A DNA stretch of 64,000 nucleotides from an uncultured bacterium (lineage in GTDB: Bacteria > Bacillota_I > Bacilli_A > RF39 > UBA660), in contig CAMODU010000001.1 of NCBI GenBank assembly GCA_946611605.1, positions 170 to 64,169 on the forward strand, given 5' to 3'. The notes under the pieces were generated by a model that saw only the letters and a list, made by a program, of their open reading frames with translations, did no database searches and was not told where the DNA came from. A program made the position numbers and the translations under genes. Positions 21,291 to 46,395 of the stretch are shown here, one piece after another (positions within the stretch are counted from its first letter, which is position 1; each line of letters opens with the position of its first letter).

Positions 21291-21371
21291 ACCTATGCTC
21301 CCATTTTCTATTATACCTATAATTATTTTACCATAAAACGATATAAAAAGTCTTTAATAATCGCATAAAAA

Positions 21372-21393
21372 AAGAAGATATTTCTATCTTCTT
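21372..21393. terminator. rho-independent terminator separating the fibre locus from the giant gene
   Basis: AAGAAGAT-atttct-ATCTTCTT preceded by A7 (T7 on minus) and followed by TTTTAT on plus. Confidence 0.55.
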
Positions 21394-21404
21394 TTTATAA
21401 TCTA

Positions 21405-22406
21405 TTAGTCAGTTATAGCAAATTGTAAATTATAAGAAATACTAGCTCCTGTTGCATAGTTTTCACAATCGATATCTTGTCCTTCAACCCACATGTAAAT
21501 TCTCATCTTAGTTACACCTGCAGAAAGACTAAATACTTGTTTATAATCTTCAACTTTATTACCATCAGCATCTAATTCAGTACCAAATGCGGCTAATGTA
21601 GCTAAATCTGGAGTAACTAATTCTGAATTATCAGTATTAGTACCATTAACTGTTTCAATTAATGATTGAGGAGTAGTAAATGCTCCATTAATACCATAAT
21701 AAGGAGTCTTATCATTAGCAACTAATGATACACCATATGTTGATGATAATTGATTCTTAACTGTATCAGCATGTGCATCAGCATTTGGTTCCCAAATGAA
21801 TGCTTTAGCAGCAGCAGAATTGTTTAATTTAATTAACTCACCTGGAGCTTTAGATGCATCTCCAGTACCAATTTCAACAAATGCTACACGAGCAGAGTTT
21901 TGTAATCCCTTATCAGTATCTTTATTAACTACTGATGAGTTTTGAGTTAAATAAATTTGTTCATCTTTATCAACTTTTAAGAATACATCAAATGCTACAA
22001 ACTTACCATTTGCAGATGTAGTTGATGCTTCATTTTCTTTATTAGTGAAAATAGTATAATTACCTTCATCATCGTTTCCGATTACTCCACTATACATATC
22101 CATTAAATGGTTAGTAATAGCACCATTTGTAGATACAGCAGTAACTGTTGCAGGTAATATGTTATTAGCACCAGCATAACCAGATGTAATATCATCATTA
22201 GTTATAACAGTCTTCCATGTACTTGCATCAGTAGATATTTGTAATCCGTTACTAGCTTCTACTTTAACATCAATTTGATTGATTGTTACTACACGGTTAG
22301 CAGTAAACCATGCATATGTTGATGTACCTAACATTACTACAGTAATAAGTAATAATAGGATCAACAAACTTAATTTCTTTTTGTTTTTCTTTTGTTTCTT
22401 TGCCAT
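21405..22406 (-). CDS. TasA/CalY (camelysin, peptidase M73)-like secreted protein with SipW-cognate-type signal
   Basis: N-terminus MAKKQKKNKKK + hydrophobic + GTSTYAWFTAN, compared to TasA GGGTWAAFND. C-terminal ...RIYMWVEGQD...ISYNLQFAITD resembles the CalY/TasA terminal strands. GAAGGAGA RBS. Confidence 0.55.
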   Translation of the reverse strand: MAKKQKKNKKKLSLLILLLLITVVMLGTSTYAWFTANRVVTINQIDVKVEASNGLQISTDASTWKTVITNDDITSGYAGANNILPATVTAVSTNGAITNHLMDMYSGVIGNDDEGNYTIFTNKENEASTTSANGKFVAFDVFLKVDKDEQIYLTQNSSVVNKDTDKGLQNSARVAFVEIGTGDASKAPGELIKLNNSAAAKAFIWEPNADAHADTVKNQLSSTYGVSLVANDKTPYYGINGAFTTPQSLIETVNGTNTDNSELVTPDLATLAAFGTELDADGNKVEDYKQVFSLSAGVTKMRIYMWVEGQDIDCENYATGASISYNLQFAITD

Positions 22407-22408
22407 AA

Positions 22409-23131
22409 TTATTCTCCTTCTTGTTCAATATGTTCTTCTGTAATTTTCATACGCATTTTTAATTCTCCACCAATAAGTGGATCAGTACAGTCAGGATCAT
22501 CACCCTCAAGCCATACTACAATAGTCATCTTATCAAAATCACCTGGTCTGAAATTTTCTCTTTTCTCTAAGATAATAGTTCCGTTATCTCCATCGATTTC
22601 TTTGAATCTAGTAGTTCCAGGTTCTGCTTCATCTGCTATTGAATTCTTTTTAGCATATGTTACATACTCGCCATTAAGATATATTCTGAATCTAACAGCT
22701 TCATCAACATTCTTAATAACGTCATCGATTATTACTTCGTACCAATAATTTAATACGTCTTTCCCCTGATTCTCAATGAAGAAAGTATAAGCAATATAGT
22801 TTTCTCCATTATGAGAGCCTTCATAGTTTCCATCTATATCATCAGGTAACCATTTATAGGAAATATTATCCATAAATTTAATTGGTATTGCTTCGAGTTT
22901 CCTTTTAGGTTGAGAATTATTTAAGCTATCAAATATAGCAAGCCCACTATTAATTGTTTCTTGAGAATCCAATGTAATAGTAAAACTACCTTGACTATAA
23001 GCAATGCTTAATATTCCGTAAAGACATATCAAAAACAGCAATAACACTAATGATGTAATCTTTACTACTCTAGAAGTAACTTTCTTCCTTTTGACTTTAT
23101 CAGCGGTTACTATTACATTTTTACCAAACAT
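22409..23131 (-). CDS. TasA-like paralog (start trimmed to MFGKN...)
   Basis: GGTGGTGGA RBS before ATG 23131. KRKK + hydrophobic + GILSIAYSQGSF. C-terminal TIVVWLEGDDPD motif. Confidence 0.45.
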   Translation of the reverse strand: MFGKNVIVTADKVKRKKVTSRVVKITSLVLLLFLICLYGILSIAYSQGSFTITLDSQETINSGLAIFDSLNNSQPKRKLEAIPIKFMDNISYKWLPDDIDGNYEGSHNGENYIAYTFFIENQGKDVLNYWYEVIIDDVIKNVDEAVRFRIYLNGEYVTYAKKNSIADEAEPGTTRFKEIDGDNGTIILEKRENFRPGDFDKMTIVVWLEGDDPDCTDPLIGGELKMRMKITEEHIEQEGE

Positions 23132-23349
23132 AATCCACCACCACAAAATATTTCTATATGACACCCTTCTATCATACAATCTCATTATAATTCAAACACA
23201 GATTTTTATCAATATCAATTTATAATAATTATTCCTTTTTACGATACTAGTCAGTATATATTTACGTCAAATACAATATACTTTATATTATATTTACATT
23301 ATATGGTTTTTAGCATGATAAAATAATAGTATAGGAAGGGATGTATATT

Positions 23350-23946
23350 ATGAGTAATATACTAAATAATAAGCGTATTAATCTATTTATAGCACTTATA
23401 TCATTGCTATTACTCATTACAATGGTACAAAATACATATGCTAAATATGTATCTAGTGCTAATGCAGATACTAACTTCACAATAGCAACATGGGCATTCG
23501 TAATCAATAGACAAGATGTATTAAGTAATTCCAACTTTAGTAATACTATTACACCAGTATTTATCAACAATGATAATATTAAACAAGGTGTTATAGCTCC
23601 TACTTCAGAAGGATATTTTGATTTAGCAATTGATGCTTCTGGAACTGATGTATCATTTACTGAAACTATAACAGTTGCTAATTCAGTAAATAATAAAATA
23701 AGTGATTTAAAGATAACTGGATATCAAATAAATGGTGGAGATTTAGTTGAATTCACTGAAACAACAAATACCATTACTACAGATCATTTATTAAGCGATC
23801 ATACAAGAACAACTACATATCGTATATTTATTAAATGGTATGATGGCGAAGGCGAAAACATGGATAACCAAGCCGATACTCAAGCATCACTTAATGATAC
23901 TGCTAAAGTAAACGTTAATGTCGGGTTCATACAAAAAGCTAATTAG
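23350..23946 (+). CDS. TasA-like paralog (only plus-strand member)
   Basis: GGAAGGG RBS. MSNILNNKR + hydrophobic + NTYAKYVSS. C-terminal YRIFIKWYDGEGEN. Confidence 0.45.
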   Translation: MSNILNNKRINLFIALISLLLLITMVQNTYAKYVSSANADTNFTIATWAFVINRQDVLSNSNFSNTITPVFINNDNIKQGVIAPTSEGYFDLAIDASGTDVSFTETITVANSVNNKISDLKITGYQINGGDLVEFTETTNTITTDHLLSDHTRTTTYRIFIKWYDGEGENMDNQADTQASLNDTAKVNVNVGFIQKAN

Positions 23947-23955
23947 TATTACTAA

Positions 23956-24588
23956 TTAGCTATTATTTTGTGTAATTATTACTTTTATTCTTAAAGTTAT
24001 GCTGGATAAATCAGGATGACTTTTTTTATAGTTACTAGCTATTATTCCCCATCTAGTATCTTCCTCATCATCACCAGTTTCAAATGGCCATACAACATTA
24101 AAATTATATGTTGCAATACCATCATGTGAAGATATATTAGTACTAGATATTCCAACTGTAATAGTAAAAGGATAATTATTAGCTAGTTTATTTAATAACT
24201 CAGCTGATGTCATATCTCCTTCTTGCACTTCTTCTTTTCTTGATTCTCTACCCTCAACTGTTATATACGTATCATCAAATATTCTAGCTTCCAACACTTC
24301 ATATGATAATGTAGCATCTACATCACCTTGGTTTCTAGCTTGTAAGCTATATACATAATCTTCCATACCTGGGTATATACTATCAACATCTAGATTAACA
24401 TAATCTTCTACAGCTTGTTCACCTGCTTGGAATAATACATTCCACGCTCTAACATGAACATCAACCTTATTATCTACTTTAGTAGTATATATAAACCATG
24501 CAAAGGTATTACCTACAACTAAGAATAAGATGAATATTAACCTAAGAATTATAAATTTTTTATTTGTCTTCTTTCTTTGGTTCTTCAT
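23956..24588 (-). CDS. TasA-like paralog
   Basis: MKNQRKKTNKK + hydrophobic + GNTFAWFIY. C-terminal FNVVWPFETGDDEED...ITLRIKVIITQ. Confidence 0.5.
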   Translation of the reverse strand: MKNQRKKTNKKFIILRLIFILFLVVGNTFAWFIYTTKVDNKVDVHVRAWNVLFQAGEQAVEDYVNLDVDSIYPGMEDYVYSLQARNQGDVDATLSYEVLEARIFDDTYITVEGRESRKEEVQEGDMTSAELLNKLANNYPFTITVGISSTNISSHDGIATYNFNVVWPFETGDDEEDTRWGIIASNYKKSHPDLSSITLRIKVIITQNNS

Positions 24589-25123
24589 CTTCTTCAGAAT
24601 CCTTTACAAATAATCCTCTTAATAAATCAAACGCAATAGATAAACCTACTATTACAAATATTCCATAGTAGACTGTATTATTTTGCATTAATCTACCTAA
24701 GAAACTTAATATAATTGAATGATATAATACTTTACCATATATCATATCACCAGATATTTTAGGATCTTCTACATCGTTTGCTATACCTTGAGTAGTAAAT
24801 GTATATTTACCATTATTCTCATCTATTTTTATAATTCTATGTGTTATAACTATTCCTTTATTATATCCATTAGGATCACTTTTATAAGTAACATCATCAC
24901 CTACTTTATAAGTAGATACATCTTGTTTCTTAACAACTATTAAATCACCTATTTTATATTCAGGTTCCATTGATCCTGATACTACTTGGAATATATAAAA
25001 ATTACCTATAGTTAAATTGTTTTTAGTAGTTCTTTGTAATATAACAATAGCTAACATAATAATTAATAATATAGTTATAATTATTCTTATTATATTAAAA
25101 GTTTTCATCACTACTTTTTTCAT
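24560..25123 (-). CDS. sipW: signal peptidase I, SipW/ER-type (S26B)
   Basis: TM anchor then VVSGSMEPEYKIGDLIVV (Ser nucleophile), ITHRII (His), ANDVEDP, and a C-terminal TM. Confidence 0.75.
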   Translation of the reverse strand: MKKVVMKTFNIIRIIITILLIIMLAIVILQRTTKNNLTIGNFYIFQVVSGSMEPEYKIGDLIVVKKQDVSTYKVGDDVTYKSDPNGYNKGIVITHRIIKIDENNGKYTFTTQGIANDVEDPKISGDMIYGKVLYHSIILSFLGRLMQNNTVYYGIFVIVGLSIAFDLLRGLFVKDSEEDEEPKKEDK

Positions 25124-25127
25124 AATA

Positions 25128-26246
25128 TCATCCCAAATCTATATTTTCTATTCTCTCTAGATAAGCTTTAATACTAGTTGAGAACACATTTTCAATTTCA
25201 GATAAACTAGCTTCTCTTTTAAATCTAGTAATAGCTATCTTATCTCCTATTTTCTTCTTTAATTGTTCCATATCTAAATCAGTATTTAATTCTACTATTC
25301 TTTGAATTAAGTTATCAGTTATTTCTTCAACTGCTCTATCTTTATCTTCTTTAGATTTAACATTACTTAATGTATTCATAGCAACATAATCCATTAAGAA
25401 AGTATTATTAATATACTCTTTTAAGATACCATTATCTTCATAATCTTTTTTACTCTTAACTATTTTAGTATCATCATCTGTATGAGCTTGTAGATAATCC
25501 CATAGTTTCATTGCATATTGGAAGTTAGTATTCTTTAAGATAACATTAGTCTTTTTAATTGGAGGTATTACTTTAGCTACATGAGCTTTATGTAATAACT
25601 TATATGTTTCCTCAGATTGAAGCATTTTAATGTCATCTTCAAGTCTTTTAACTCTTTCCTCAATAGATAATTCACCTTGTTCTTCTTCTTTATCTATTAA
25701 AGATGAAGTATAGTAAAATTCCATTGAAATTTGTTCTTTACCTACTTTACTCTTAGCATGATATTCAGCCTTCTTTATATCCTTATAACTAGAACCATTT
25801 ACTAATGTTTTCTTTTTTAATTCTACAAAGTTAGCCATATTATTTACTAAAGTATATATTAATCTGTTTTCATATGTATCATATGATTCATCTTTATTAA
25901 TATTTAAGATTTTAGATGGTTTAACATCACCATTATCTTCAATCTTTTGAATCATATTTGTATGTTTAGCTAAATGTCTAATACTTTCAACAGTAACTCT
26001 TCTAGCTAATTCAACTTTAACTATTTCTTCTTCATTTATAATGAATCTATTTGGGTTTCTAAAAATATTATCTATATATTTAACAGTATCTTCCATTAGG
26101 TCAAGCCATTCAAAACTTGTTTCTACTTTCTTTATATCAGTAGAAATGTTTAAACTTGATCTAGTATTATTTAAGAAACTAGTTTTATTAGTTTTATGGT
26201 CATCATAATATAAATCTATTATTTTTAAATCACCCATAGATATCAT
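25128..26246 (-). CDS. hypothetical cytoplasmic protein (372 aa), candidate partner of the McrB-like NTPase
   Basis: Coiled-coil-rich, no TM or signal. No nuclease motif recognisable by eye. 2-nt spacing to the upstream ATPase gene. Confidence 0.4.
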   Translation of the reverse strand: MISMGDLKIIDLYYDDHKTNKTSFLNNTRSSLNISTDIKKVETSFEWLDLMEDTVKYIDNIFRNPNRFIINEEEIVKVELARRVTVESIRHLAKHTNMIQKIEDNGDVKPSKILNINKDESYDTYENRLIYTLVNNMANFVELKKKTLVNGSSYKDIKKAEYHAKSKVGKEQISMEFYYTSSLIDKEEEQGELSIEERVKRLEDDIKMLQSEETYKLLHKAHVAKVIPPIKKTNVILKNTNFQYAMKLWDYLQAHTDDDTKIVKSKKDYEDNGILKEYINNTFLMDYVAMNTLSNVKSKEDKDRAVEEITDNLIQRIVELNTDLDMEQLKKKIGDKIAITRFKREASLSEIENVFSTSIKAYLERIENIDLG

Positions 26247-26247
26247 C

Positions 26248-27771
26248 CTAACTCATTTTCTTAAGTCTTAATAAATATTCAGTACATTCTTTCATTTTTC
26301 CTTTACCAAATTTATTATCTAGGAATTTAACGAAATCATCTATTTCATCACGAATGTATGCAATATTTAATTGTTCAAACTTTCTTAAAATCTTTCTTGC
26401 AATGAAGTAATCTATTCCATCTACTTCATCTCCACCACATGCTACATACACAGGAACGAACTTTTTCATGTGTGCAACAATACGGTTACCAAATGCAATA
26501 CGGAAATGTTGTATTACATAGTTATCCATTTCTTCTATCTTGTCTAAATTCTCTTGATGTATAGGATAATTAGCTATAGCATCTTGAATCTTTTCATCAA
26601 AATAAGAATAGTTAATATCCATCGCTTCTGTTTCAACAGGCTCAAATACTTCACCTTTATCATTTATATCAATTGGCATAGCACGGTCATATACCTTATC
26701 AGTAACCATGAATGTTGAGTCATCGTTATTGATTGTGCCGATGTACCATACATTTGGAGGTATTTTTAATTTACCTTCAATTAATTTCTTTGGATCGTTC
26801 TTCCATGCAGATGGAACTATTTCAACAATCCATTCATCTTTATTAGGCATTTCAAGTATAGATAGCATTTCTGCAAAATAGTATTCTACACGTGAAATGT
26901 TCATTTCATCTAAGATAACTGTATATATATCATCTGTATATCCAGCTACATATAATTCTTTTAATACTTCTGTTTCATTAAACTTCTTTGTAAATTCGTT
27001 GAAGTATCCAAATAACTCAGTTCTATCACGCCAAGATGGTTGAACAGACGCAATACATGAATCATGTTTTAAGAATTTTCCCCAAGCATATGCTAAGGAA
27101 GTTTTACCTGTACCAGAGATACCTTGTAAGATTACAAGTTTAGTAGATGCTAACGATGCAATAAATAATCTAATCATATCTTCTTTATAATATAGTTTTA
27201 ATTTACTTGCAGCAAAGTTTCTAAATGCATTAACTAAATCAGGTAATTCAAATGTATTGTTATATACTTGTACTTTATAATTTTCAAATTTTTGATCAAC
27301 TTCATATAATTTAGGGAATCTTATATCAGATGCAGGATTAACAGCATCCCCTTCTTCTTGAGTAGTATCTCCTTCAGCTTCATCAGGTTTTATACCTAGA
27401 TTAGATACTTTCATTGCTAATATATCTTCTTTTTCTTTCATTAGTTTTGCAACTTCATGATTTAAATCAGATACTTCTTCTAGTAATGATTCTTGATCTA
27501 CTAATGATTTTCTAAATCTAACATATTTTCTAATTAGTAGATAAATACCAAATATAATTAAAGCAACTACTGTAACAACTATAATAATTGCTATTGCAAA
27601 GAATAACCATTCAGGTCCATTAAAATCTTGCTTATAATTATCCGCTATTCTTGAGTACGCTGAAAAATCAAATAGAGTTCTAAATCCATTTGCTATACCC
27701 TCAAATATATATTTGAAAGAGTTAAAAAATTGAGTTAAGAATTCATATAGAAATCTAAAAAATGTTTCCAT
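26248..27771 (-). CDS. membrane-anchored McrB-like (AAA_5) NTPase
   Basis: One N-terminal TM helix (WLFFAIAIIIVVTVVALIIFGIYLLI) and a coiled coil. Walker A QGISGTGKTS. Walker B VILDEMNISRVEYYFAEMLSILE parallels the McrB IIDEINRANLSKVFGEVMMLME block (recalled from memory). GGAAGGAAG RBS. Confidence 0.55.
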   Translation of the reverse strand: METFFRFLYEFLTQFFNSFKYIFEGIANGFRTLFDFSAYSRIADNYKQDFNGPEWLFFAIAIIIVVTVVALIIFGIYLLIRKYVRFRKSLVDQESLLEEVSDLNHEVAKLMKEKEDILAMKVSNLGIKPDEAEGDTTQEEGDAVNPASDIRFPKLYEVDQKFENYKVQVYNNTFELPDLVNAFRNFAASKLKLYYKEDMIRLFIASLASTKLVILQGISGTGKTSLAYAWGKFLKHDSCIASVQPSWRDRTELFGYFNEFTKKFNETEVLKELYVAGYTDDIYTVILDEMNISRVEYYFAEMLSILEMPNKDEWIVEIVPSAWKNDPKKLIEGKLKIPPNVWYIGTINNDDSTFMVTDKVYDRAMPIDINDKGEVFEPVETEAMDINYSYFDEKIQDAIANYPIHQENLDKIEEMDNYVIQHFRIAFGNRIVAHMKKFVPVYVACGGDEVDGIDYFIARKILRKFEQLNIAYIRDEIDDFVKFLDNKFGKGKMKECTEYLLRLKKMS

Positions 27772-27784
27772 ATAATCTTCCTTC

Positions 27785-28762
27785 CTACATCTTTATTATT
27801 TTGCTCTCTATCTTATCCTCATTATCCTTAATCATATCAAAAAATTCACTATCTTCATAGATAAATATATATGAAAATATTGGTAAACTATTAATTTTTC
27901 CATCAAATGTATCATCTATTATAATTGCTACATTATAACCATATTTAATTATAAGATCAAATATTTCCTTATTTTTAATATATGTAGAATATGTGATTCT
28001 TAGATGAATAAACTTTCTTGCTAATGTATTATCAATAGTACTTAATAGTCTTTTAAACTTCTTATCTTTAGCTACTAAAGTAGCAGGAATATCTATAATA
28101 TATTTTCTAGTAAAATCTAGACTAATAGCATTCTTTAATAGTTCATATGAACATTTAATTAACATGATAAATAATTTATCTTCATTTATAACTGGTGTAT
28201 TATATGCTTTATCAATAGCATATTCAGAATATAAATTAGATATTTTTATATTACTATCTAATCCTAATAAATATGTTTTTCTATATACACTTTTCTCAGT
28301 TAATATAAAATCATTTGATACTATTGAATCAAAGAATTTCTCTTTAGTTCTAGAATAATTATTTAACCATTTCTTTATTTCTTTAATAGATTCATTAGAT
28401 AGATTTAACTTTAATGTTTCATCTTTAGTTAATAAATCTAAAACTGAATCACCATCTTCTATTGGATATACATCATCTACATATGCTATATAGATAAATA
28501 ATGCTACTGCTGTTTTTAATAATTCATCTTCTTCAGATGTTTTATTTTCATTATAAACATCTAATAATTCTTTATTAAGACGAGTAACAAAATCTCTTGT
28601 TGATGTATAATTAGTTTCATTAAAATATCTAACATCTATATATTTATTAACAAATAACTTACATACTTTCTTAGGATAATTATTACCTATAACTAATCTT
28701 AAGAATTCAAGTAATTCTCTCTTAACAAACTTAATATATTTACTTATTATATTGTATTCCAT
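27785..28762 (-). CDS. hypothetical protein with possible degenerate EAL-like C-terminal domain
   Basis: Start trimmed to ATG 28762 (AGGAGTGG RBS overlapping the upstream stop). The C-terminal ~110 aa follow the EAL layout (see findings) but with the catalytic ExxE, DDFGTG and K-I-D positions substituted. Confidence 0.3.
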   Translation of the reverse strand: MEYNIISKYIKFVKRELLEFLRLVIGNNYPKKVCKLFVNKYIDVRYFNETNYTSTRDFVTRLNKELLDVYNENKTSEEDELLKTAVALFIYIAYVDDVYPIEDGDSVLDLLTKDETLKLNLSNESIKEIKKWLNNYSRTKEKFFDSIVSNDFILTEKSVYRKTYLLGLDSNIKISNLYSEYAIDKAYNTPVINEDKLFIMLIKCSYELLKNAISLDFTRKYIIDIPATLVAKDKKFKRLLSTIDNTLARKFIHLRITYSTYIKNKEIFDLIIKYGYNVAIIIDDTFDGKINSLPIFSYIFIYEDSEFFDMIKDNEDKIESKIIKM

Positions 28763-28772
28763 AAGACCACTC

Positions 28773-29693
28773 CTAATTTGGATCTTCAACATTTAGTGAA
28801 ATAATACTAGTATTATTATCAAATGGATAAGTATAATTCTTTGTTGTATCTTTCTTATAGAATCTTAAAGCAGTTGAACTTAAAGGATCTATAGGAATTC
28901 TTACACTGTTGATGTATTGTACTCCATTATAATCTGTTGTTGTGTATTGTGCATTCTTTAATACATTACTAGTATTATCAAAGAACACATCATCATTATC
29001 AAATGCTAATGTTACATATTTACTTACACATTTTGATTGATTATCTTTAGATAATTTTCTATAGGTTTTATTATCTATAACATCACCTACATTATAATCA
29101 TCAAATGCTTCAGTTATTGTACATGAGTTATTAGCATTAGTAATTTTAAATACTAAATATGTTCTATTCTTTTCATCTTCTATTTCATATGTTAAACCTT
29201 TTTTACCAACTATATATTCAAACGTAGCACTTAAAGTTTTAACATATGGAGATGTTGATTTTGCATATATTTTAATAACCATTGATTCTTGTTCATTGTA
29301 TTCTCTTTGAGGATTAACATTTATTGTAACAGTAGAAGAATGGTTAATACTTGATGCATAAACTGTTCCTTCTCCATTTGATGTTGAACATATAACATCA
29401 GATGGACATTCAAACCATACTACATATGGAATATCATAATCAGTAAAAGTAAGATTATTCTTCATAGATAATAAATCAAATGATATATCAAATGCACCTA
29501 CACCAGACCAGTTATTAATCTGATATAAAGGTTCTTTATCAGTTAATCTATTACTTGAAAAATAGAAGTTCTTACTATTCAAATAGTAATCATGATATTC
29601 TTGTACTGCATATCTTGCAAATGTATATACACCAAATCCTAATACAATAACAAGTATAATAATAATTGCAATTCTTATATTCTTCTTTTTCAT
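28773..29693 (-). CDS. secreted protein with SipW-cognate-like signal (306 aa)
   Basis: MKKKNIR + hydrophobic + GVYTFARYAV. Asn/Tyr-rich. The C-terminal motif is less clear than in its paralogs. Confidence 0.4.
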   Translation of the reverse strand: MKKKNIRIAIIIILVIVLGFGVYTFARYAVQEYHDYYLNSKNFYFSSNRLTDKEPLYQINNWSGVGAFDISFDLLSMKNNLTFTDYDIPYVVWFECPSDVICSTSNGEGTVYASSINHSSTVTINVNPQREYNEQESMVIKIYAKSTSPYVKTLSATFEYIVGKKGLTYEIEDEKNRTYLVFKITNANNSCTITEAFDDYNVGDVIDNKTYRKLSKDNQSKCVSKYVTLAFDNDDVFFDNTSNVLKNAQYTTTDYNGVQYINSVRIPIDPLSSTALRFYKKDTTKNYTYPFDNNTSIISLNVEDPN

Positions 29694-29695
29694 TA

Positions 29696-30283
29696 TTACA
29701 CAACCTGTTCTGCATTTATCTTGATGTCTACTAAATCTATATTACCTGAATAATGTTCAGGAGAATTTTCATATTGTTTAGGAAATTTAACCCATAAATA
29801 ATAAACATCTGTTTTCTTATTACTAAAATACATAGGATTAATATCATCTATTATTAGATGTTTATAGAACACTCCATTATCATCTGTAGTATATGTAGTA
29901 TTACTTACTATATCATTAGATAAATCAGGATCTTTAAACACTTTAAACTCTAATGGCATATTTGTAGTTGTAATTAATTCTATTTTATATCTTAAATCTA
30001 CATTAGCTTTCTTATTATCTTTAAAGTTAGATACATCAAATCTATACATATATGGTTCATCAGATGGTACCATACTTTCTAATTTAATACTTTGAGTTTG
30101 ATTAGTTACATCAACTATAAAGAATGCAATAGCAGGTTTAAGATTAACTTTTGTATTTGTTTCATATTTTGAATAAGTAATATTAGATGTACTAATAACT
30201 ACTCCTACTAAAACTAAAAGAACGAATAATATACTATATCGTTTGAAATATTGATTATTCATTAACTCCTTTAGTTTATTCAT
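29696..30283 (-). CDS. TasA/CalY-like paralog
   Basis: Hydrophobic + NITYSKYETN. C-terminal VYYLWVKFPKQYEN...IDLVDIKINAEQ closely parallels the CalY end ...YLWVQFEFVDDG...LELQWTFNANQ. Confidence 0.5.
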   Translation of the reverse strand: MNKLKELMNNQYFKRYSILFVLLVLVGVVISTSNITYSKYETNTKVNLKPAIAFFIVDVTNQTQSIKLESMVPSDEPYMYRFDVSNFKDNKKANVDLRYKIELITTTNMPLEFKVFKDPDLSNDIVSNTTYTTDDNGVFYKHLIIDDINPMYFSNKKTDVYYLWVKFPKQYENSPEHYSGNIDLVDIKINAEQVV

Positions 30284-30291
30284 AGTTACAC

Positions 30292-31125
30292 CTACTTAAC
30301 TCTATCTTTAATTCTCTTTTGTATTTCAGATAAATCTAAACGCATAGTATAATTTATAAACTCTTTTTGTTTATCTTCTAAATCATCTACCGTTTTCTTT
30401 TCTTCATCTATTTCCTTAATATCTTTCTTTAATTCGTTAACTTCTTTTGTTGTCATCTTATATTCATCATTTTTAGCTAACATTTTATTTATTTCAGTAA
30501 GATCTATTGTCTTAGTGAACTCTAATAATTCTTCTTTATTTATTTGAGGAGTTTCATCAGGTAATTCTACCTTAGTAATAGTTATTTCTTCTTCCTCTTC
30601 CTTCTTTTCTTCTTTCTTTTTTTCTTCAGGTTTCTTTCTTGATAATGCTATATCAAATAATACTAAAGTAATAAATAACACTAGTATTATTTGAGGTTCA
30701 GAGAATACTTTTTTCCATATACCTAACTTAGGATATATTTTAACTACCTCACCTATTATCATACTTTTAGTAATAGTTGTATCTATAGTATTATTAGCAT
30801 CACCCTTACAAGTATATTTATCTCCATCAATAAACATTACCCTGTGAGTAATAATTGAACCTTCAGATATGTAAGAAATAATATCATCTTTTTGTACATT
30901 GTTATTATCTAGTTTAACTAGAATAATATCACTTGTACTTATAGTAGGTTCCATTGAACCTGATTCAACTTGTAATACTGTGTATCCAAAGAAATTAGGA
31001 TACATATTATTAGTAAAAGTCATTACTGCTTTACCATATATTATTAGGATTAATATGGCTAATAATATATAAGTAAAAACATTAACTATATTTTTAACTA
31101 TCTTTTTAACATCAATAGTTATCAT
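30292..31125 (-). CDS. sipW: signal peptidase I, SipW-type, with ~110-aa highly charged C-terminal extension
   Basis: VESGSMEPTIS, ITHRVM, KGDANN, second TM, then EKKKEEKKEEEEE... K/E-rich tail. Confidence 0.7.
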   Translation of the reverse strand: MITIDVKKIVKNIVNVFTYILLAILILIIYGKAVMTFTNNMYPNFFGYTVLQVESGSMEPTISTSDIILVKLDNNNVQKDDIISYISEGSIITHRVMFIDGDKYTCKGDANNTIDTTITKSMIIGEVVKIYPKLGIWKKVFSEPQIILVLFITLVLFDIALSRKKPEEKKKEEKKEEEEEITITKVELPDETPQINKEELLEFTKTIDLTEINKMLAKNDEYKMTTKEVNELKKDIKEIDEEKKTVDDLEDKQKEFINYTMRLDLSEIQKRIKDRVK

Positions 31126-31151: not shown

Positions 31152-31706
31152 TTATTCTCCAGTATATTGTTTAAAATTACTATTTATAACAATATCTAAT
31201 GAACCACCTATTAGTTCATTATCATTTTCATTATATTCTTCTATATCATTCCAAATTATTTGTATTTTAATTTTTCTAGTTTTATCTTGATCAGATAATC
31301 TAATTACTCCTGTTAATACTTCATCACTTACTTCTTGGTTTGTTGCTTCATCTACAATTCGTAATTCTATATTTGGATGATTATCAAACTTTGTTGTATC
31401 AAATGATAAATTATATTCAACAGAAGTATCACAGTTAGATACATCTATATCAACTTCAAACTCACCAGTAGATCCAGGAGCTAAATATCCTTCTTCTGTA
31501 TGAGTACTACCTGTTACAACAAAATCATTAAATGATATACTTTGTTGCAATGTTATATTAGTATCATTTAAAGATATACTCCACTTACCTACAGTCATAA
31601 CTGTTTCAGCTCTTGCATTAGTTTCAAATAAACCATATGTCTTAACTATATTTAATGAAACTATAGCAATAAGCAATATACTAATTAGAATTAGCTTCTT
31701 CTTCAT
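31152..31706 (-). CDS. TasA-like paralog
   Basis: MKKKLILISILLIAIVSLNIVKTYGLFETN. C-terminal KIQIIWNDIEEYNEND...LDIVINSN. Confidence 0.5.
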   Translation of the reverse strand: MKKKLILISILLIAIVSLNIVKTYGLFETNARAETVMTVGKWSISLNDTNITLQQSISFNDFVVTGSTHTEEGYLAPGSTGEFEVDIDVSNCDTSVEYNLSFDTTKFDNHPNIELRIVDEATNQEVSDEVLTGVIRLSDQDKTRKIKIQIIWNDIEEYNENDNELIGGSLDIVINSNFKQYTGE

Positions 31707-32232
31707 TTACTTTCTTATTTTCCTTAACTAATTCAATAATCATCATTATTTCATAAACAATAGCAAATAATGTTGGTAATATAATTAAGAATAAGAATCC
31801 CCATTTAGATGTTAGTATTCCAAGTACAGTACCTAGTCCATGATAAACTCTAGCTGTATCTTGTTTACCTATTACATATTCACCTGATACTTTATTATCA
31901 TTAACAGTGAATGTAGATTCAAATTGAGTAACTGTTTCTTTATCTGTTACTTCACCAGTATAAATAAATACTGAACTAGTTTTAGCTGAATTATAATAGA
32001 AGATTTTATCTCCTTTATTTATCTTATTGTCACTGTTACGTTTTACAATAACTAAATCCCCTTCTTTATAATCTGGTTCTAATTGATCATTATCAATAAT
32101 AATCAAAGTATTATTACCTAATACAGTAGTTTTATAATCGTTATAAGATAATAAACATACTGATACAAATACAGCAATAATAAACCAACATGTAATTAAA
32201 AGATCAATAAATAATTTCCCTATCTTTTGCAT
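31681..32232 (-). CDS. SipW paralog lacking catalytic Ser/His (pseudo-signal-peptidase)
   Basis: Same TM...x-x-LEPDYKEGDLVIVK...C-terminal TM architecture as the two SipW proteins. However NDQLEP replaces SGSMEP, IYTGEV replaces ITHRxx, and the GDAN box is absent. Confidence 0.5.
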   Translation of the reverse strand: MQKIGKLFIDLLITCWFIIAVFVSVCLLSYNDYKTTVLGNNTLIIIDNDQLEPDYKEGDLVIVKRNSDNKINKGDKIFYYNSAKTSSVFIYTGEVTDKETVTQFESTFTVNDNKVSGEYVIGKQDTARVYHGLGTVLGILTSKWGFLFLIILPTLFAIVYEIMMIIELVKENKKVNEEEANSN

Positions 32233-32327
32233 AAATTTCTCTCCGTCCTATCCTATTTTTCTACATATACTATTTTACCATAAATAGATAGTATTTTAAA
32301 CAACTTTTAGTAAAGAGTTTTACTAAA

Positions 32328-36109: not shown

Positions 36110-37186
36110 TTATTTTACTAATTTATTTCTACCAGTTTTCTTAGCAACGTATAAATTCTTATCTGCATTTGAAATAGCTTCATCAACAGTTAAATCATCA
36201 TTTAAACGAGCAGCACCAATTGAAATAGTAACTTTAATTCTTCTACCATCTTCTGATTTAAACTTAGTAGATTCAACTTTCTTTCTTATTTTTTCTAGTC
36301 TATTACAGAAAGCAGCATATTCAACTGAAGAAGGAGCAATCATTACAAACTCTTCTCCACCCCATCTACCAGATTTAATTCTCTTAGTAGAAAAATCTAT
36401 AATTATTTCTGCTACTCCTTTTAATACTATATCACCTGTTTGATGACCATATGTATCATTTATCTTTTTAAAATGATCTAAGTCAAATATAGCTACACAG
36501 TAATATCCTTTAGATACTATTGAATTATATATAATACCTTTAGCTAAGTAATTAAATGAATGTCTGTTATACATTTCAGTTAATTCATCAAAATCAGCTT
36601 TTCTTGTTAATTCATGTACTCTAGATTCATTTCTGATTGTATAGAATATAGATAATAAGATAATTGCAATAAATACTATCATATTATTGAAAGTAAATAA
36701 TGTTCTTAATAACCAACCATCTACTTCAGTATAGATAGTCATTGGAATTACATGTATTAATACTGAGAATAATAAATAAGATATTATAACTATAGTTGCA
36801 TATGCTAATGATGCTTTATAGTTAGTTTTAGTTCCTTCTGTTTTAAATGATGGTAAGAAGGTACCAACTAATAGAGCGAATGTCCAGTTTTGATAAGCAG
36901 CATGCCATCCAAATGAACACATACCACATAACATATGAAGCCATATCTCTAAGAAAGTAAATCCAATATATACTTCCTTCTTCTTATAACAACTTAAGAA
37001 CCATACTGAATAGAATAATAATGATACTATATTAATTATTACCATAAACTTATGTCCTACTATTAAATATAATACCATCAAGAATATATGAGTCATCAAT
37101 AAGAACACATTCAAAAAGAATATAGTAATATCTATACGTCCTTGTGAATCTCTTTTATTCTGCCATAACTGTCTAATGTCTTTCAT
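36110..37186 (-). CDS. membrane-bound diguanylate cyclase (GGDEF domain; GGEEF active site, no RxxD I-site)
   Basis: 5-6 N-terminal TM helices. DELTEMYNRHSF, RWGGEEFVM. Confidence 0.85.
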   Translation of the reverse strand: MKDIRQLWQNKRDSQGRIDITIFFLNVFLLMTHIFLMVLYLIVGHKFMVIINIVSLLFYSVWFLSCYKKKEVYIGFTFLEIWLHMLCGMCSFGWHAAYQNWTFALLVGTFLPSFKTEGTKTNYKASLAYATIVIISYLLFSVLIHVIPMTIYTEVDGWLLRTLFTFNNMIVFIAIILLSIFYTIRNESRVHELTRKADFDELTEMYNRHSFNYLAKGIIYNSIVSKGYYCVAIFDLDHFKKINDTYGHQTGDIVLKGVAEIIIDFSTKRIKSGRWGGEEFVMIAPSSVEYAAFCNRLEKIRKKVESTKFKSEDGRRIKVTISIGAARLNDDLTVDEAISNADKNLYVAKKTGRNKLVK

Positions 37187-41963: not shown

Positions 41964-43691
41964 TTAATATCTATTATAGTATGTTTTCTTACTATATACT
42001 TTATATATCTTAAATGATATTAGTAATAATACTATTATAGTAAATGTATTTTTAAATACTCCTGTCTTAGGATTTTCTTTTATTTCTTCTACACCTTTTA
42101 CTTTTTCTTCAGTATAAATAATATTAAATGTTGAAGGAGTAGGATTATTTCTTGGTCTTATTGCTAATGTTGTATCTATATCTATATAGTTTCTTCCAAT
42201 TTCATTTCCTTCATCATCTTTAATTGGAACATATCCCATCTTCATATATGTTACAAAATCACTTGATATTAATGTGATATTAGAATTAGGAAAATACCAA
42301 TATGAATCAGATTGATCTAATATACTTTCAAAATCTCGCTTATCATGTTGAACACCTTCATATTCATAAGTTTCTAATAAAGGATATTCATTTCTATTGC
42401 CTATCTTAACAACACTTAATGAATCAGCTTCATAGAACACTCCCCATGACATTTTACCTCTATAAGGCAAATTAACATATTTAGCATCTTGATTAAATAA
42501 CAACATATAATCCAATATTTTACGATTCATTAAAGAACCAAAATTAACACCAGTAAAATCTAATGACTCAGTTCCACCATAATAAGTAAAATATTCAGTA
42601 TCAGCATAGCTATAAGTTGCTCCATTCATAGCTGAACTAAAATCAAGATTACTAATATTAACATGTTTCAATGAAGGAGTACCAGTTAAAAAGTAATGCC
42701 AACTTTCAACTTTGGATGTATCGAAGTTATCAATATATAATTCTTCTAATGAATAACAATATGCAAACATATAATACATTGACTTCGCATTTGAAGTATC
42801 CCATGTTGATAAATCTATTGTTTTTAGTGAATAATCGTTATAGAACATATAGTCAAATTTTACTAAATCAGATGTATCTACTTTATCTAAACCTTCTATT
42901 TCTTCAAGATTTGGCATATAGTCAAACATATCATAAGAACGATCTCCTTGTATTTTAATTGGATCTTTGATTATGATTTTCTTAACAACATTCTTATAAT
43001 CATAAGGAAGATAATTAGTACTCCACCAGTCACTATCATCTTCTTTAGCAGGTTCTGCATGATTAATGTAATACTTTCCATCTACTTCTTGATTATATGA
43101 ATACTTACCTGGTTCATCTCTAAAATAGGTTGCAACTTTTGTTTCAGGATCAAAAACGATGTATGCTTCTCCCCATAACTCTTCTTCAGTTGCATGATAT
43201 ATTTTAGCATCTTTTTTTGTAGGACCATGTATATTTAAACTCTCTGGATTTTTTAAATAATTAACAACTATAGGTTTTGCATCAGTTGAATACTTACCAG
43301 CTCCAACTCCAACATATACTATTTCATTATCTAATTGGTAATGATTATCTTTATTATTAACTATATTAATTGTATAAAAGATATTCTCTGATTCATGAGA
43401 ATTGTATCCACATGAAGTTTGATTTCTAGGACAAGACTTAGATCTATCCATATCACGAATATCAAACATATTCTTTAGTGTCTTAAATACTACTTTACCA
43501 TCTTTATCATTTGTAGCAGTATCTATTACTTCACCTTTATCATTTCTTAATTCAAAAGTAAATTCTCCTGCTTCTATATCTTTACCTTGAAGATTAACAT
43601 ATGTTTCTATTGTATATGGATATTCAACAGGTGCTGCAAATACTCCAAATGGTATCAATAATAAGATTAATAATAATAAATATTTCTTCAT
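41964..43691 (-). CDS. cell-wall-anchored surface protein with BspA-type leucine-rich repeats and NPKTG sorting signal
   Basis: Signal peptide. Repeats of the F..C.SL..I.L. type (e.g. MFAYCYSLEELYIDNFDTSKVES). C-terminal NPKTG + hydrophobic + KIYKVYSKK tail. Confidence 0.65.
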   Translation of the reverse strand: MKKYLLLLILLLIPFGVFAAPVEYPYTIETYVNLQGKDIEAGEFTFELRNDKGEVIDTATNDKDGKVVFKTLKNMFDIRDMDRSKSCPRNQTSCGYNSHESENIFYTINIVNNKDNHYQLDNEIVYVGVGAGKYSTDAKPIVVNYLKNPESLNIHGPTKKDAKIYHATEEELWGEAYIVFDPETKVATYFRDEPGKYSYNQEVDGKYYINHAEPAKEDDSDWWSTNYLPYDYKNVVKKIIIKDPIKIQGDRSYDMFDYMPNLEEIEGLDKVDTSDLVKFDYMFYNDYSLKTIDLSTWDTSNAKSMYYMFAYCYSLEELYIDNFDTSKVESWHYFLTGTPSLKHVNISNLDFSSAMNGATYSYADTEYFTYYGGTESLDFTGVNFGSLMNRKILDYMLLFNQDAKYVNLPYRGKMSWGVFYEADSLSVVKIGNRNEYPLLETYEYEGVQHDKRDFESILDQSDSYWYFPNSNITLISSDFVTYMKMGYVPIKDDEGNEIGRNYIDIDTTLAIRPRNNPTPSTFNIIYTEEKVKGVEEIKENPKTGVFKNTFTIIVLLLISFKIYKVYSKKTYYNRY

Positions 43692-43745: not shown

Positions 43746-45386
43746 TTAATTATATTTATATAATGTTTTACATTTATATTTATGATGAATATATAAACTT
43801 ATCATTAATAAAGCTACTATTAATGAAGTATAAGTAAACACTCCTGTTTTAGGATTAGTTACTTCTTCTTCACCTTTAACTTTACCAAATATATATACAA
43901 ATTCTAAATCATCTTTTATATAATTTTCTGTAGATGGAACTACTTTCCAATAACCTTCTCCATCTCCTAACATACCTGTTGGTATTTCATCAGTTGTTAA
44001 TTTAGTCCAGATATCTTTAGTTATTACTATATCATCAGTAGTACCATCAGCCCAAGTTCCACCTTGTATTTTAAATGTAATAGTTTTCTTAGATGATAAT
44101 GTTACTGAAGAAGATAATTCATCATTTGAATAGAATAATTCATAAATATCTACAGGATCCCACTCATCATCTATATGAATAAGCTTTTGATTTAATTCAG
44201 TATTATTAATGTCAGTCAATTTTAAGCCATCATCTATTTTAATACTATAATATGCAAATGGTAATTCATCTTGATCATTTACTATTTTAAAATATGAATT
44301 ATTAATATTAGCTGAACCATATACAATAATTGATCCTATAAGATTAAAATAACTATCTTTTATATTTAACTCAGCATCATCAGAATAAAATGTCCATGCT
44401 CCTTTTTGATTCCAATAAGTATTATTAATATTTAATTTTTGAGCTGATATATTCCATGAAGCCATATCTTTTATATTTACTATGCAATTATTAAAGTTTA
44501 GATAGTTTGTTAATCCACCTGTTCTTAATGAATTTATATTTAATGTACTATTATCTATATATGCTCCTTTATATAAATTTAATTCGCCTACATCCAAAGT
44601 GGAATTCTTTACTTCTAAATCTCCTGCTACATCAGTATTACCATCAGATTGTAATAAGGCAACACGTATTGTTGAATTCTCAACTATTATTGTTTTTCTT
44701 TCAACAGTTGATGTCCACAAACGGGAATCCTCATCATCAGATTCTATTATTGAATCCACAAACTTAAAATAACCTTGATTAGCATTAGTATAATAAGATT
44801 TAAAACCATGTATATGTGAATTATTAACAATTATATATGGAGAATAATCTATCTTCATAGATTGTGGTTGTATATCAGAATTATTTATAACTACTGGCCC
44901 ATTACCAACAATATAACCTCCAGCTAATTTACAATTATTAATTTCAATACCATCTTTATGTACTTCAATTCTATCATAATTATCTGCTTCAACATTAGTA
45001 AGCTTTGCTGAGTTTAGACGTGATATATTAAAACGGTATGAATTATCAAGAGTTACTATTTTAGTATCATAAATGTTAACATCAGATTTATCCCAATCAT
45101 CATATACATAATCAATTCTTCCTAAACCAACAGGTTTATTATTAGATGTAATAGATATTTGTTTATGTAATAGTATTTCATTTATAATTGTATTTTCATT
45201 TATAGTTAATATATTATTGCTATAAGTGAAATCTTCTGAATAATCATCTACTACAGGTCCATTATAACCATCTTTAACAATTAATGAATCATCAGAGTTT
45301 AATTCTATAAAATAATTACGTGCATATACATTAGATGCAACAAACATAGTTAATAACAATACAATTATCATACATGCTTTTTTCAT
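43746..45386 (-). CDS. cell-wall-anchored surface protein with parallel beta-helix-like Asn-rich repeats and NPKTG sorting signal
   Basis: Signal peptide. Recurrent INN(S/T)/NxS rungs. C-terminal NPKTG + hydrophobic + HHKYKCK tail. Its 5'UTR/RBS is nearly identical to that of the LRR paralog. Confidence 0.6.
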   Translation of the reverse strand: MKKACMIIVLLLTMFVASNVYARNYFIELNSDDSLIVKDGYNGPVVDDYSEDFTYSNNILTINENTIINEILLHKQISITSNNKPVGLGRIDYVYDDWDKSDVNIYDTKIVTLDNSYRFNISRLNSAKLTNVEADNYDRIEVHKDGIEINNCKLAGGYIVGNGPVVINNSDIQPQSMKIDYSPYIIVNNSHIHGFKSYYTNANQGYFKFVDSIIESDDEDSRLWTSTVERKTIIVENSTIRVALLQSDGNTDVAGDLEVKNSTLDVGELNLYKGAYIDNSTLNINSLRTGGLTNYLNFNNCIVNIKDMASWNISAQKLNINNTYWNQKGAWTFYSDDAELNIKDSYFNLIGSIIVYGSANINNSYFKIVNDQDELPFAYYSIKIDDGLKLTDINNTELNQKLIHIDDEWDPVDIYELFYSNDELSSSVTLSSKKTITFKIQGGTWADGTTDDIVITKDIWTKLTTDEIPTGMLGDGEGYWKVVPSTENYIKDDLEFVYIFGKVKGEEEVTNPKTGVFTYTSLIVALLMISLYIHHKYKCKTLYKYN

Positions 45387-45454: not shown

Positions 45455-45960
45455 AAAAAACATTATCGATTTCCCCCGATAATGTAGTTTTCTATGTGGT
45501 ATATCATAAATCAATTTTACGGCTTAGGTCGAGATGTATTTCACTATATCCCACTTAATATTACTATTAAGCACTTTCGTATTATGAGATATAACTAGAT
45601 ATCTAGTTCCTCGATTGCCACTTAGTCCGCACCTTAATACCTATGACATATACACGCTAGAGGTTTTCCCTAACAATAGTGACTATCCTTATATGCTTTT
45701 GCATTTATTGTTTCATCATATGAATCCCCAACAAACACTCACATCATGTATGTTATTATATTATTTTAGTGACGGGGTTAAAGGAATTTCTAATCAGTTA
45801 CATGCCATTGTAATTATCCTAAAACCTTAAATCATTTAACCACCCAGCCCTGGCAGACCAAGCAATTAAGTGAAGTGTCATGTCTACAATTGGTAGATTT
45901 TTAGCCCTACCTTCAAATAGTATAATGACTAGCATAATGCACCACACATATGTAAATTAT
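45455..45960 (-). ncRNA. candidate large structured non-coding RNA (unclassified); ORF-free ~500-nt transcription unit between two terminators
   Basis: No ORF longer than 71 aa in six frames. GC visibly higher than flanks. Bounded on the minus strand by terminator 45968-45992 (upstream) and hairpin+T7 45461-45484 (downstream). Several internal stems. No tmRNA, RNase P or SRP signatures seen. Confidence 0.3.
45461..45484 (-). terminator. rho-independent terminator
   Basis: CATTATCG-atttcccc-CGATAATG perfect 8-bp stem followed on minus by TTTTTTTGTG. Confidence 0.55.
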
Positions 45961-45967
45961 ATCAAAA

Positions 45968-45992
45968 AAAGTGATTTTTTGCAAATCACTTT
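45968..45992 (-). terminator. rho-independent terminator for gene 45991-46395
   Basis: AAAGTGATTT-tttgc-AAATCACTTT followed on minus by TTTTTTTGAT. Overlaps the stop codon. Confidence 0.55.
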
Positions 45993-46395
45993 ATTTCAAC
46001 ATATCGATTAAAATAGGTAGTTCAAATACAAAGAAACCTATAATAATTACTGCTAATACTAGTATTAATATTAATACCACTTTTGGGTTTTCTTTTTTAA
46101 CTTTTTCTACTTTAACAATATCATTAACTTCATGTAGTTTTTCTATATTAACTTGTTGATTATATAAATCAGCATTACTAACATTGAAGTTAGTTTGAGG
46201 TTTACTCATTTGTTCAGCTTGTTGTTGTATTTCTTCCATAGAAGCTTTTTCTTCTAAAGGAATATCAGCAACAGGATTATTAGCATTTTGTGCTCTAGCT
46301 ATATTCATAGCTTGTTCACTTGTAACCGCTATAGGTGCAGCTACACCTGCATCTAATGTTTGAGTAACAACCTTTACTTCTTTTTCTTCATTCAT
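45991..46395 (-). CDS. small protein with C-terminal TM anchor (134 aa), hypothetical
   Basis: Charged N-terminal region, one C-terminal TM helix. Confidence 0.45.
   Translation of the reverse strand: MNEEKEVKVVTQTLDAGVAAPIAVTSEQAMNIARAQNANNPVADIPLEEKASMEEIQQQAEQMSKPQTNFNVSNADLYNQQVNIEKLHEVNDIVKVEKVKKENPKVVLILILVLAVIIIGFFVFELPILIDMLK

Follow-up and report, generated by a model that had tools for sequence, protein, structure and literature searches.

A SipW signal-peptidase paralogue without its catalytic residues at the head of a conserved locus of 14 genes in uncultured Bacilli from the gut and the rumen

The window analysed here is a stretch of 64,000 nucleotides (nt) from an uncultured RF39 bacterium (UBA660; assembly GCA_946611605.1, contig CAMODU010000001.1), and all coordinates follow the numbering of this window, unless another contig is named. 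Its minus strand carries, at 31681..32232, an open reading frame (ORF) with an ATG start that encodes 183 residues, which a first-pass annotation of the DNA had read as a paralogue of the signal peptidase SipW, without the catalytic Ser, the catalytic His and the GDAN box, at the head of a fibre operon; we refer to it as g1, the pseudo-SipW gene. We have found that the protein is a non-catalytic paralogue of the SipW/Sec11 type (MEROPS family S26B), in which the S26B fold and the two-helix topology are kept and the catalytic Ser and His are lost, and that g1 is indeed the first gene of its locus, which comprises 14 genes and also encodes two intact SipW enzymes, here called SipW_A and SipW_B.

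The relationship of g1 to the S26B family is visible in its sequence, at scores that stay below the family cut-offs: the NCBIfam model of the archaeal/ER-type (endoplasmic reticulum) signal peptidase I, TIGR02228, matches with 36.2 bits (E 5e-9; curated cut-off 51.85), the SipW model NF046067 matches with 34.6 bits (E 1.4e-8; cut-off 190), and the bacterial-type model TIGR02227 matches more weakly than TIGR02228 (E 6.4e-5); in the Pfam and NCBIfam scans, the g1 family is covered by no model. By the scores of hidden Markov models (HMMs), SipW_B, with a median of 35.5 bits, is the nearer of the two intact paralogues to g1, SipW_A reaching 17.5 bits. The AlphaFold2 model (predicted local distance difference test score, pLDDT, 85.3) consists of a helix at residues 2-28, a beta-rich domain at residues 36-130 and a long C-terminal helix at residues 143-182, and its comparison with the Protein Data Bank (PDB) by Foldseek has returned human SEC11C (7p2q_A) and SEC11A (7p2p_A), with a probability of 1.0, followed in third place by SipA from Streptococcus pyogenes (4n31_A). 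The beta-barrel-like fold of the S26 catalytic domain is present in the model between the N- and C-terminal membrane helices; the N-terminus is located inside, the domain outside and the C-terminus inside.

Along the minus strand, the elements of this architecture, which the first-pass annotation had described correctly, are arranged as follows: an N-terminal membrane helix (residues ~7-29, 32146..32214) leads to the near-universal Asn31; the degenerate box B, NDQLEP (residues 48-53, 32074..32091), stands in place of SGSMEP, as read from the sequence and the alignments; box C, GDLVIVK (residues 58-64, 32041..32061), is recognised by its conservation as having been kept; and the C-terminal membrane helix (residues 142-166, 31735..31809) bears the motif S-x-W-G...P...Y-E, identified from per-column conservation. 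Upstream of g1, where the preceding gene terminates at 32359, a consensus scan has found a promoter-like site (32272..32300, minus strand; TTTAAA, a spacer of 17 nt and a TG-extended TAAAAT), which is a pattern match only, such extended -10 sites being no more frequent in the region than is expected from shuffling.

The position of the nucleophile Ser is occupied in g1 by Gln50 in a three-way alignment with the two paralogues of the window, in an alignment of 124 sequences and in a profile-to-PDB alignment with human SEC11A, where SDELEP lies over SGSMEP. The sole His of the protein, H131, is located just ahead of the second membrane helix, at a position that is not conserved and that is mostly Pro in distant members; residues 1-130 are free of His. 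The ITHR box falls on TSSV in one alignment and on IYTG in another, neither of which has a His; the earlier pairing of IYTGEV with ITHRxx was right about the loss of the His, while its exact placement is ambiguous. Where the paralogues have GDAN, g1 has ESTF; D112 of g1 aligns with the distal Asp, but the two candidate columns of the family read D71/N39/E5 and G68/D26/N19, so this residue is not conserved.

The same replacements are seen throughout the family. Among 121 close relatives, the nucleophile column holds Glu in 93, Ala in 10, Gln in 7, Ser in 6 and Phe in 2, the column of the catalytic His holds Ser (40), Asn (39), Lys (19), Asp (8) or Glu (5) and never His, and the outer domain is devoid of any His in 104; in the six relatives whose nucleophile column does hold Ser, the base column is occupied by Asn or Ser, i.e. 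by neither His nor Lys. In the best 150 representatives of clusters at 50% identity, the nucleophile Ser is missing from 149 and none has a His at the catalytic column; the replacement columns take nearly any residue, and because they vary so freely, they do not form a new catalytic centre. No conserved Ser, His, Lys, Asp or Glu was found in the outer domain of 117 distant representatives beyond the structural positions. P0192 (176 residues, profile E 1.8e-28), located on a contig of 575 nt (L030), is the only one of the best 150 that keeps the GSMEP box (as TGSMEP), accompanied by ITDH with a nearby His; it already shows the helix-2 motif of the family and may be an intermediate between the active and the dead forms. 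Judging from these alignments, g1 presumably cuts nothing itself. The absence of the Ser, the His and the GDAN box is thus borne out by the comparisons with the paralogues, with the family and with SEC11A, and in no alignment, including those with S26B members, is a Ser/His pair placed at the catalytic positions.

The g1 family is large. A search of 5.8 billion proteins has returned 266 homologues, the best 120 of which are 54-99% identical to g1 and 162-273 residues long, mostly 175-186, and a profile search of 1.84 billion representatives (clusters at 50% identity) has returned 1903 at E<1e-3, 360 at E<1e-10 and 59 at E<1e-30; in the databases, the relatives of g1 are named 'hypothetical protein' or 'signal peptidase I'. 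The C-terminal extensions of the longer members contain no informative Pfam domains, apart from the fusions to g6 (described below), which were detected with local HMMs. In the comparison with the relative L024, whose g1 protein is 87% identical, the ratio of nonsynonymous to synonymous substitution rates (dN/dS) of g1 is 0.160, next to 0.122 for SipW_A, 0.274 for SipW_B and 0.07-0.21 for the other genes of the locus; full-length orthologues of g1 are present in all 22 other species-level genomes that have the gene whole on a contig. With this ratio, these intact orthologues and a family of this size, g1 is maintained by purifying selection and is not a pseudogene; decay in related strains, which the first-pass annotation had named as what would speak against its reading, is not what is observed there.

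The distribution of conserved residues has been followed at two depths, i.e. in an alignment of 65 sequences for the close family and in 117 full-length representatives for the distant one. The close family has 35 invariant columns, among them the remnant of box B (L/M-E-P) and box C (GDL); G58, D59 and L60 of box C are still dominant among the distant representatives, whereas box B (D49, E52 and P53) decays, with E52 kept in 35/117 and P53 in 33/117. The residues that persist best are found beside the membrane (N31 in 114/117, G134 in 116/117), in the second membrane helix (S142 in 110/117, P153 in 108/117, G145 in 103/117, E/Q161 in 99/117, Y160 in 92/117) and, in the outer domain, at G122 (112/117). 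Across the 23 species-level genomes, the second helix hardly varies in g1, whereas that of SipW_B varies clearly more, and the g1 motif, S-x-W-G...P...Y-E, is a property of the g1 family that the active paralogues do not share. The outer domain has no alternative catalytic centre, and constraint is strongest within or next to the membrane; the sequences thus suggest that what the family does in common is done in or at the membrane.

The genes of the locus follow one another in the order g1-g2-SipW_A-g4-g5-g6-g7-g8-SipW_B-g10-g11 (opposite strand)-g12-g13-g14, and this order recurs in all contigs of sufficient length from 23 species-level genomes, even where the identity of g1 falls to 34%, save that the g14-g12-g13 block is located upstream of g1 instead in L014 and L015, as is g14 in L022. 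The order persists with variations in L027, L028 and L029; in L028, g2 is missing and g1 is still next to SipW_A. The 23 genomes are metagenome-assembled genomes from the rumen and the gut, including Clostridium sp. CAG:1193, and their taxonomic labels are inconsistent (Erysipelotrichaceae, Tenericutes, Bacilli, Bacillales, Clostridia, Clostridiales and even Muribaculaceae).

Directly after g1, and overlapping its end by 26 nt, g2 (31152..31706, minus strand) encodes a secreted protein of 184 residues with a SipW-type signal (…KTYGLFETNA); each of the 22 loci containing both genes has the two side by side, with a gap of at most 13 nt or an overlap, which places them in the same operon. It is followed on the same strand by g3, i.e. 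SipW_A (30292..31125; 277 residues), which is intact (SGSMEP, ITHR, GDAN, TID), scores above the cut-off of TIGR02228 (67.6 bits) and has an invariant Ser, His and Asp in 22 sequences, and by g4 (29696..30283; 195 residues) and g5 (28773..29693; 306 residues), two secreted proteins with SipW-type signals. SipW_A also has a charged cytoplasmic tail of ~125 residues, the extreme end of which (…YTMRLDLSEIQKRIK) is strongly conserved between genomes and recalls the reported second, non-proteolytic function of SipW in Bacillus subtilis. The second active paralogue, g9, i.e. SipW_B (24560..25123, minus strand; 187 residues), is likewise intact with respect to SGSMEP, ITHR and the distal Asp and scores 93.8 bits against TIGR02228, above the cut-off; its GDxN box is without the Asp, reading G-I-A-N in the window and G-I/T-x-N in 18/18 orthologues, the Ser, the His and the distal Asp being kept. 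Both SipW_A and SipW_B retain the Ser, the His and the distal Asp in every genome, and g1 never does.

The distal part of the locus (13521..24588, both strands) contains g10 (23956..24588, minus), g11 (23341..23946, plus), g12 (22409..23185, minus), g13 (21405..22406, minus) and g14 (13521..21290, minus), all with N-terminal hydrophobic signals. The last of these, which ends the locus, is a giant repeat protein of 2589 residues; behind its N-terminal hydrophobic signal it shows long runs of G-G-N/S-rich repeats, beta-helix-like by eye, without a Pfam match, and its homologues vary in length (an ORF of ~2780 residues in L022, ~2060 residues in L014); a gene of 1073 residues in L029, which the homology scan did not detect, is possibly related to it. 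In six proteins, g2, g4, g5, g10, g11 and g13, a motif T-[YF]-A-x-[YF], resembling the SipW/TasA-type signal, is conserved right behind the hydrophobic region, and g12 only loosely resembles it; residues 16-45 of g13 score 15.3 bits against TIGR04088, the model of the SipW-dependent-type signal, below its cut-off of 19. By these motifs, the secreted proteins with N-terminal signals that the locus is predicted to encode number at least seven, and a clear SipW-type motif is seen in six.

The mature parts of these proteins have shown no relationship to TasA or camelysin in any of our searches: the Pfam scan of g2, g4, g5 and g10-g14 gave no matches and no TasA/camelysin (Peptidase_M73) domain, the NCBIfam scans of the neighbours for TasA homology gave nothing beyond the signal region, the profile search of the PDB for TasA-like neighbours gave only spurious matches to phage and adenovirus fibres (E>0.006), and hhalign of the g13/g10 profile with TasA, for which an approximate TasA sequence was used, aligned the signal region alone (probability 1%). 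As TasA/camelysin homology is undetected in the mature parts, the 'fibre operon' of the first-pass annotation stays an assumption. A sortase domain was not found among the locus proteins that were scanned against Pfam; no search aimed at LPXTG motifs was made.

The middle of the locus is occupied by three genes of a different kind. The first, g6 (27785..28762, minus strand; true start from P0271), which had carried no annotation before, encodes a cytoplasmic protein of 325 residues with a helical N-terminal half and an EAL-like alpha/beta half; in its AlphaFold2 model (pLDDT 90.3; predicted template modelling score 0.86), the C-terminal half finds EAL domains as approximately the top 40 Foldseek matches, including the degenerate cyclic di-GMP receptors FimX and LapD, with probabilities of 0.9-1.0, E values of 1e-3 to 1e-1 and target-normalised template modelling scores of 0.45-0.52. 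Searches for an EAL domain by sequence, i.e. Pfam on the single sequence, a profile search of the PDB and Pfam on all 63 family members, have found none. The second gene, g7 (26248..27771, minus; 507 residues), encodes a McrB-like AAA+ NTPase with an N-terminal membrane segment, which matches the NCBIfam McrB model (E 4e-5), McrB in the PDB (6hz4, E 4e-4) and PDC-M26A, a candidate defence protein of PADLOC (E 6.5e-37). The third, g8 (25128..26246, minus; 372 residues), has a DUF2357 (McrC-like N-terminal) domain (Pfam PF09823, E 8.2e-10), with no nuclease domain detected. In every locus that extends far enough, the g7/g8 pair (25128..27771, minus) occupies this middle position; perhaps it is a restriction-type motor in a new use, or perhaps the candidate PDC-M26 has no role in defence.

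A physical connection between the pseudo-SipW and g6 is provided by gene fusions in two other lineages. With local HMMs, two proteins from separate clusters at 50% identity, P0231 (681 residues, on two contigs) and P0263 (689 residues), have been recognised as fusions of a pseudo-SipW (residues ~5-175) through a linker of ~170 residues to a domain homologous to g6 (E 6e-22 and 1.6e-21); both fused genes (5855..7900 in L027 and 9805..11874 in L029) are located directly upstream of g7. The junction comes after the second membrane helix, and g6 lacks a signal sequence, which places the link on the cytoplasmic side.

Outside the locus, ~4 kb upstream of it, the window has a gene for a membrane GGDEF protein (36110..37186, minus), which is duplicated in the closest relative, L024 (3510..4586 and 5611..6687), and is common to the closest relatives only. 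Further upstream are a full-length OLE (ornate large extremophilic) RNA (45480..45961, minus; Rfam RF01071, 204 bits, E 6e-56), preceded on the same strand by a membrane-anchored ORF of 134 residues (45991..46395, minus) and an ORF of 539 residues, and two genes for large secreted proteins with C-terminal membrane anchors (41964..43691, minus, 575 residues; 43746..45386, minus, 546 residues), the former with repeats of the form DTS-x-V-x-x-M-x-x-MF, which by eye are like BspA-like leucine-rich repeats.

The explanation that we favour, and that we regard as evenly poised between right and wrong, is that g1 is a non-catalytic membrane scaffold or adaptor, which links SipW-dependent export or assembly on the outside of the cell to a cytoplasmic module. 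In this view, g1 would touch the g6/g7/g8 module with its second membrane helix and its short cytoplasmic tail, and its relic outer domain would serve as a dock for SipW-type preproteins or for SipW_A, which is encoded just downstream; a cytoplasmic, NTP-driven and possibly nucleotide-gated module would thereby be coupled to the way in which the surface proteins are exported, cleaved or assembled. The scaffold role is favoured because helix 2 is the best conserved part of the protein, because box B decays and because g6 is fused to the pseudo-SipW in two lineages. The first-pass annotation had proposed a substrate-holding chaperone, a docking factor or a regulator; the docking role is the one that the conservation of helix 2 and the g6 fusions support, while substrate-holding of a purely extracellular kind is less well supported, for the same reasons and because box B decays. 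We have also considered an extended and unlikely version of the scaffold, in which the pseudo-SipW would be a transmembrane coupler of a so far undescribed surface-assembly machine centred on SipW-type processing: the membrane-anchored, nuclease-less McrB/McrC-like AAA+ pair would drive the machine, the degenerate EAL-like g6, possibly binding a cyclic dinucleotide, would gate it, and the dead peptidase would relay the cytoplasmic state outward, controlling the cleavage or polymerisation of ~8 secreted subunits.

Several points weigh against the scaffold explanation. The contacts of g1 with the other proteins of the locus are inferred only. Half of the substrate groove is lined by residues of box B and box C, and in the close family these do not vary at all, which would fit a SipA-like peptide-binding chaperone equally well. 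The fusion to g6 occurs in two lineages only (three contigs), and the genomes that carry it may keep a stand-alone pseudo-SipW as well (L027), so the fused copy could be a specialised one. The assignment of g6 as EAL-like is based on the fold only; with the sequence-level EAL signal and a conserved GGDEF neighbour both absent, this assignment is tentative, as is any link to cyclic dinucleotides. In L001-L023, the 23 more distant genomes, no diguanylate cyclase gene or other upstream neighbour is conserved near the locus. Lastly, g7 resembles a candidate anti-phage protein, and g7 and g8 might in principle form a module that has nothing to do with the rest of the locus, which is less likely because of the strict synteny.

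A rather unlikely explanation is that g1 is an extracellular chaperone of the SipA kind, whose relic groove would hold the cleavage region of a preprotein, e.g. g2, and present it for polymerisation or for cleavage by SipW_A; coupling to the cytoplasm would then not be essential. The invariance of L/M-E-P and GDL in the close family, the adjoining or overlapping g1 and g2 genes in the 22 loci that have both, and the precedent of SipA, which has lost catalysis and keeps its peptide-binding cleft (PMC4049620) and which is the third Foldseek match of g1, are all consistent with such a chaperone, but in the wider family box B decays while the membrane helix stays conserved, L028 has g1 beside SipW_A without any g2, and the cytoplasmic g6 fusions are left unexplained. 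The decay of the groove also bears on the quite improbable alternative of a negative regulator or decoy, which would compete for preproteins, or pair with SipW_A and inhibit it, and thus delay cleavage until assembly is licensed: a protein that acts purely as a decoy should have its binding groove complete, and in distant members the groove is not kept in full. This alternative draws support from the position of g1, always encoded just upstream of an active SipW, from dead paralogues that regulate their active relatives, which are well known (e.g. the iRhoms; reviews, PMC6451368 and PMC10211241), and from the second, regulatory role that citing papers attribute to SipW itself; inhibition and scaffolding fit the present data alike.

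That g1 is still an enzyme, with a migrated active site or a different chemistry, is very improbable. Some apparent pseudoenzymes have relocated their catalytic residues (PMC10211241), six close relatives have a Ser at the nucleophile column, and the distant P0192 combines TGSMEP with a nearby His; against this, no polar residue of the outer domain besides the structural GDL block is conserved family-wide (S116 and K98 are not universal), H131 is replaced by Pro in most distant members, the six Ser-bearing members have neither His nor Lys at the base position, and mutation of the replacement residues in SipA had no effect (PMC4049620). We have rejected an alternative catalytic centre on the grounds that the outer domains of the 117 distant representatives offer no conserved candidate residues. 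That g1 is a decaying, functionless duplicate of SipW can be practically dismissed: the loss of all three catalytic motifs is what a pseudogene would show, but the dN/dS of 0.16, the full-length ORFs in 22 other species-level genomes, the 35 invariant columns and the hundreds of clusters at 50% identity in the family are not, and we have rejected a pseudogene on the grounds of dN/dS, intact orthologues and family size. Both the relocated active site and the pseudogene are effectively excluded.

To our knowledge, one case of a dead signal peptidase that aids the building of a surface structure precedes this one, the streptococcal SipA; the g1 family is a second and independent origin of a dead signal peptidase, from the Ser/His (SipW/Sec11) type. 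It is a large family, annotated as 'hypothetical protein' or, wrongly, as 'signal peptidase I', and automated annotation pipelines should not label g1-type proteins as peptidases. In uncultured Bacilli of the gut and the rumen, g1 marks a strictly conserved locus of 14 genes, in which SipW processing occurs together with a motor-like AAA+ pair and a protein of EAL-like fold; the fusions name g6 as a testable partner, and the conserved second helix is a defined surface to mutate.

Compared with SipW/Sec11 (S26B), g1 is alike in its sequence (E 5e-9), in its fold, in its N- and C-terminal helices and in its GDL(V/I)VK box, and it is likewise encoded beside proteins with SipW-type signals, together with two genuine SipWs. 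It differs in that Gln takes the place of the nucleophile Ser (in most relatives, Glu does), in that the catalytic His and the GDxN box are missing, in its TIGR02228 score below the cut-off and in a strongly conserved helix-2 motif of its own; since the catalytic features have been examined and are absent, we have filed g1 as an S26B homologue and not as a member of the peptidase family. The tapA-sipW-tasA operon of B. subtilis and the sipW-tasA-calY operon of Bacillus cereus likewise encode a dedicated SipW with its substrates, and these substrates have an aromatic-rich motif right after the hydrophobic signal, as do six proteins of the g1 locus. The g1 locus differs from both operons in that no TasA/camelysin homology has been detected in it, in that it is much larger (14 genes), and in that it adds a dead SipW, a second active SipW, the McrB-like AAA+/DUF2357 pair and the repeat protein of 2589 residues. 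Besides cleavage, SipW of B. subtilis is reported to have a regulatory role for the matrix genes (Terra et al. 2012, as cited in PMC4551309 and bioRxiv 10.1101/2022.06.16.496330); by the account of these citing papers, the peptidase-independent role that the first-pass annotation had mentioned is roughly right, and it implies that proteins of the SipW type can act without proteolysis.

Dead paralogues of membrane-associated serine proteases that are under selection and serve as adaptors or regulators through their membrane segments are also found in the rhomboid family, as iRhoms and Derlins; their fold and family are unrelated to g1, and the likeness is an analogy only. Similarly, the inside-out logic of LapD/LapG resembles that of the coupler described above, with unrelated parts. 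The nearest precedent in function is SipA (LepA; PDB 4n31) from the pilus (FCT) operons of S. pyogenes, a non-catalytic homologue of signal peptidase I that is essential for pilus polymerisation, in which the Ser and the Lys are replaced, the replacement residues are dispensable and the cleft is conserved (PMC4049620). Like g1, SipA has lost both catalytic residues, is encoded inside an operon for a surface structure, and has replacement residues that are not conserved or not important. SipA descends, however, from the bacterial Ser/Lys type (S26A), and the origin of g1 is in the Ser/His type (S26B); the partners of SipA are a class B sortase and LPXTG pilins, whereas no sortase has been detected in the Pfam-scanned proteins of the present locus; SipA has one membrane anchor, whereas g1 has two, the second being its best conserved part; and the g1 locus, unlike the SipA operon, encodes a pair of active SipWs together with an AAA+ and an EAL-like protein. 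On this comparison, g1 probably works like SipA, without being a member of the SipA family.

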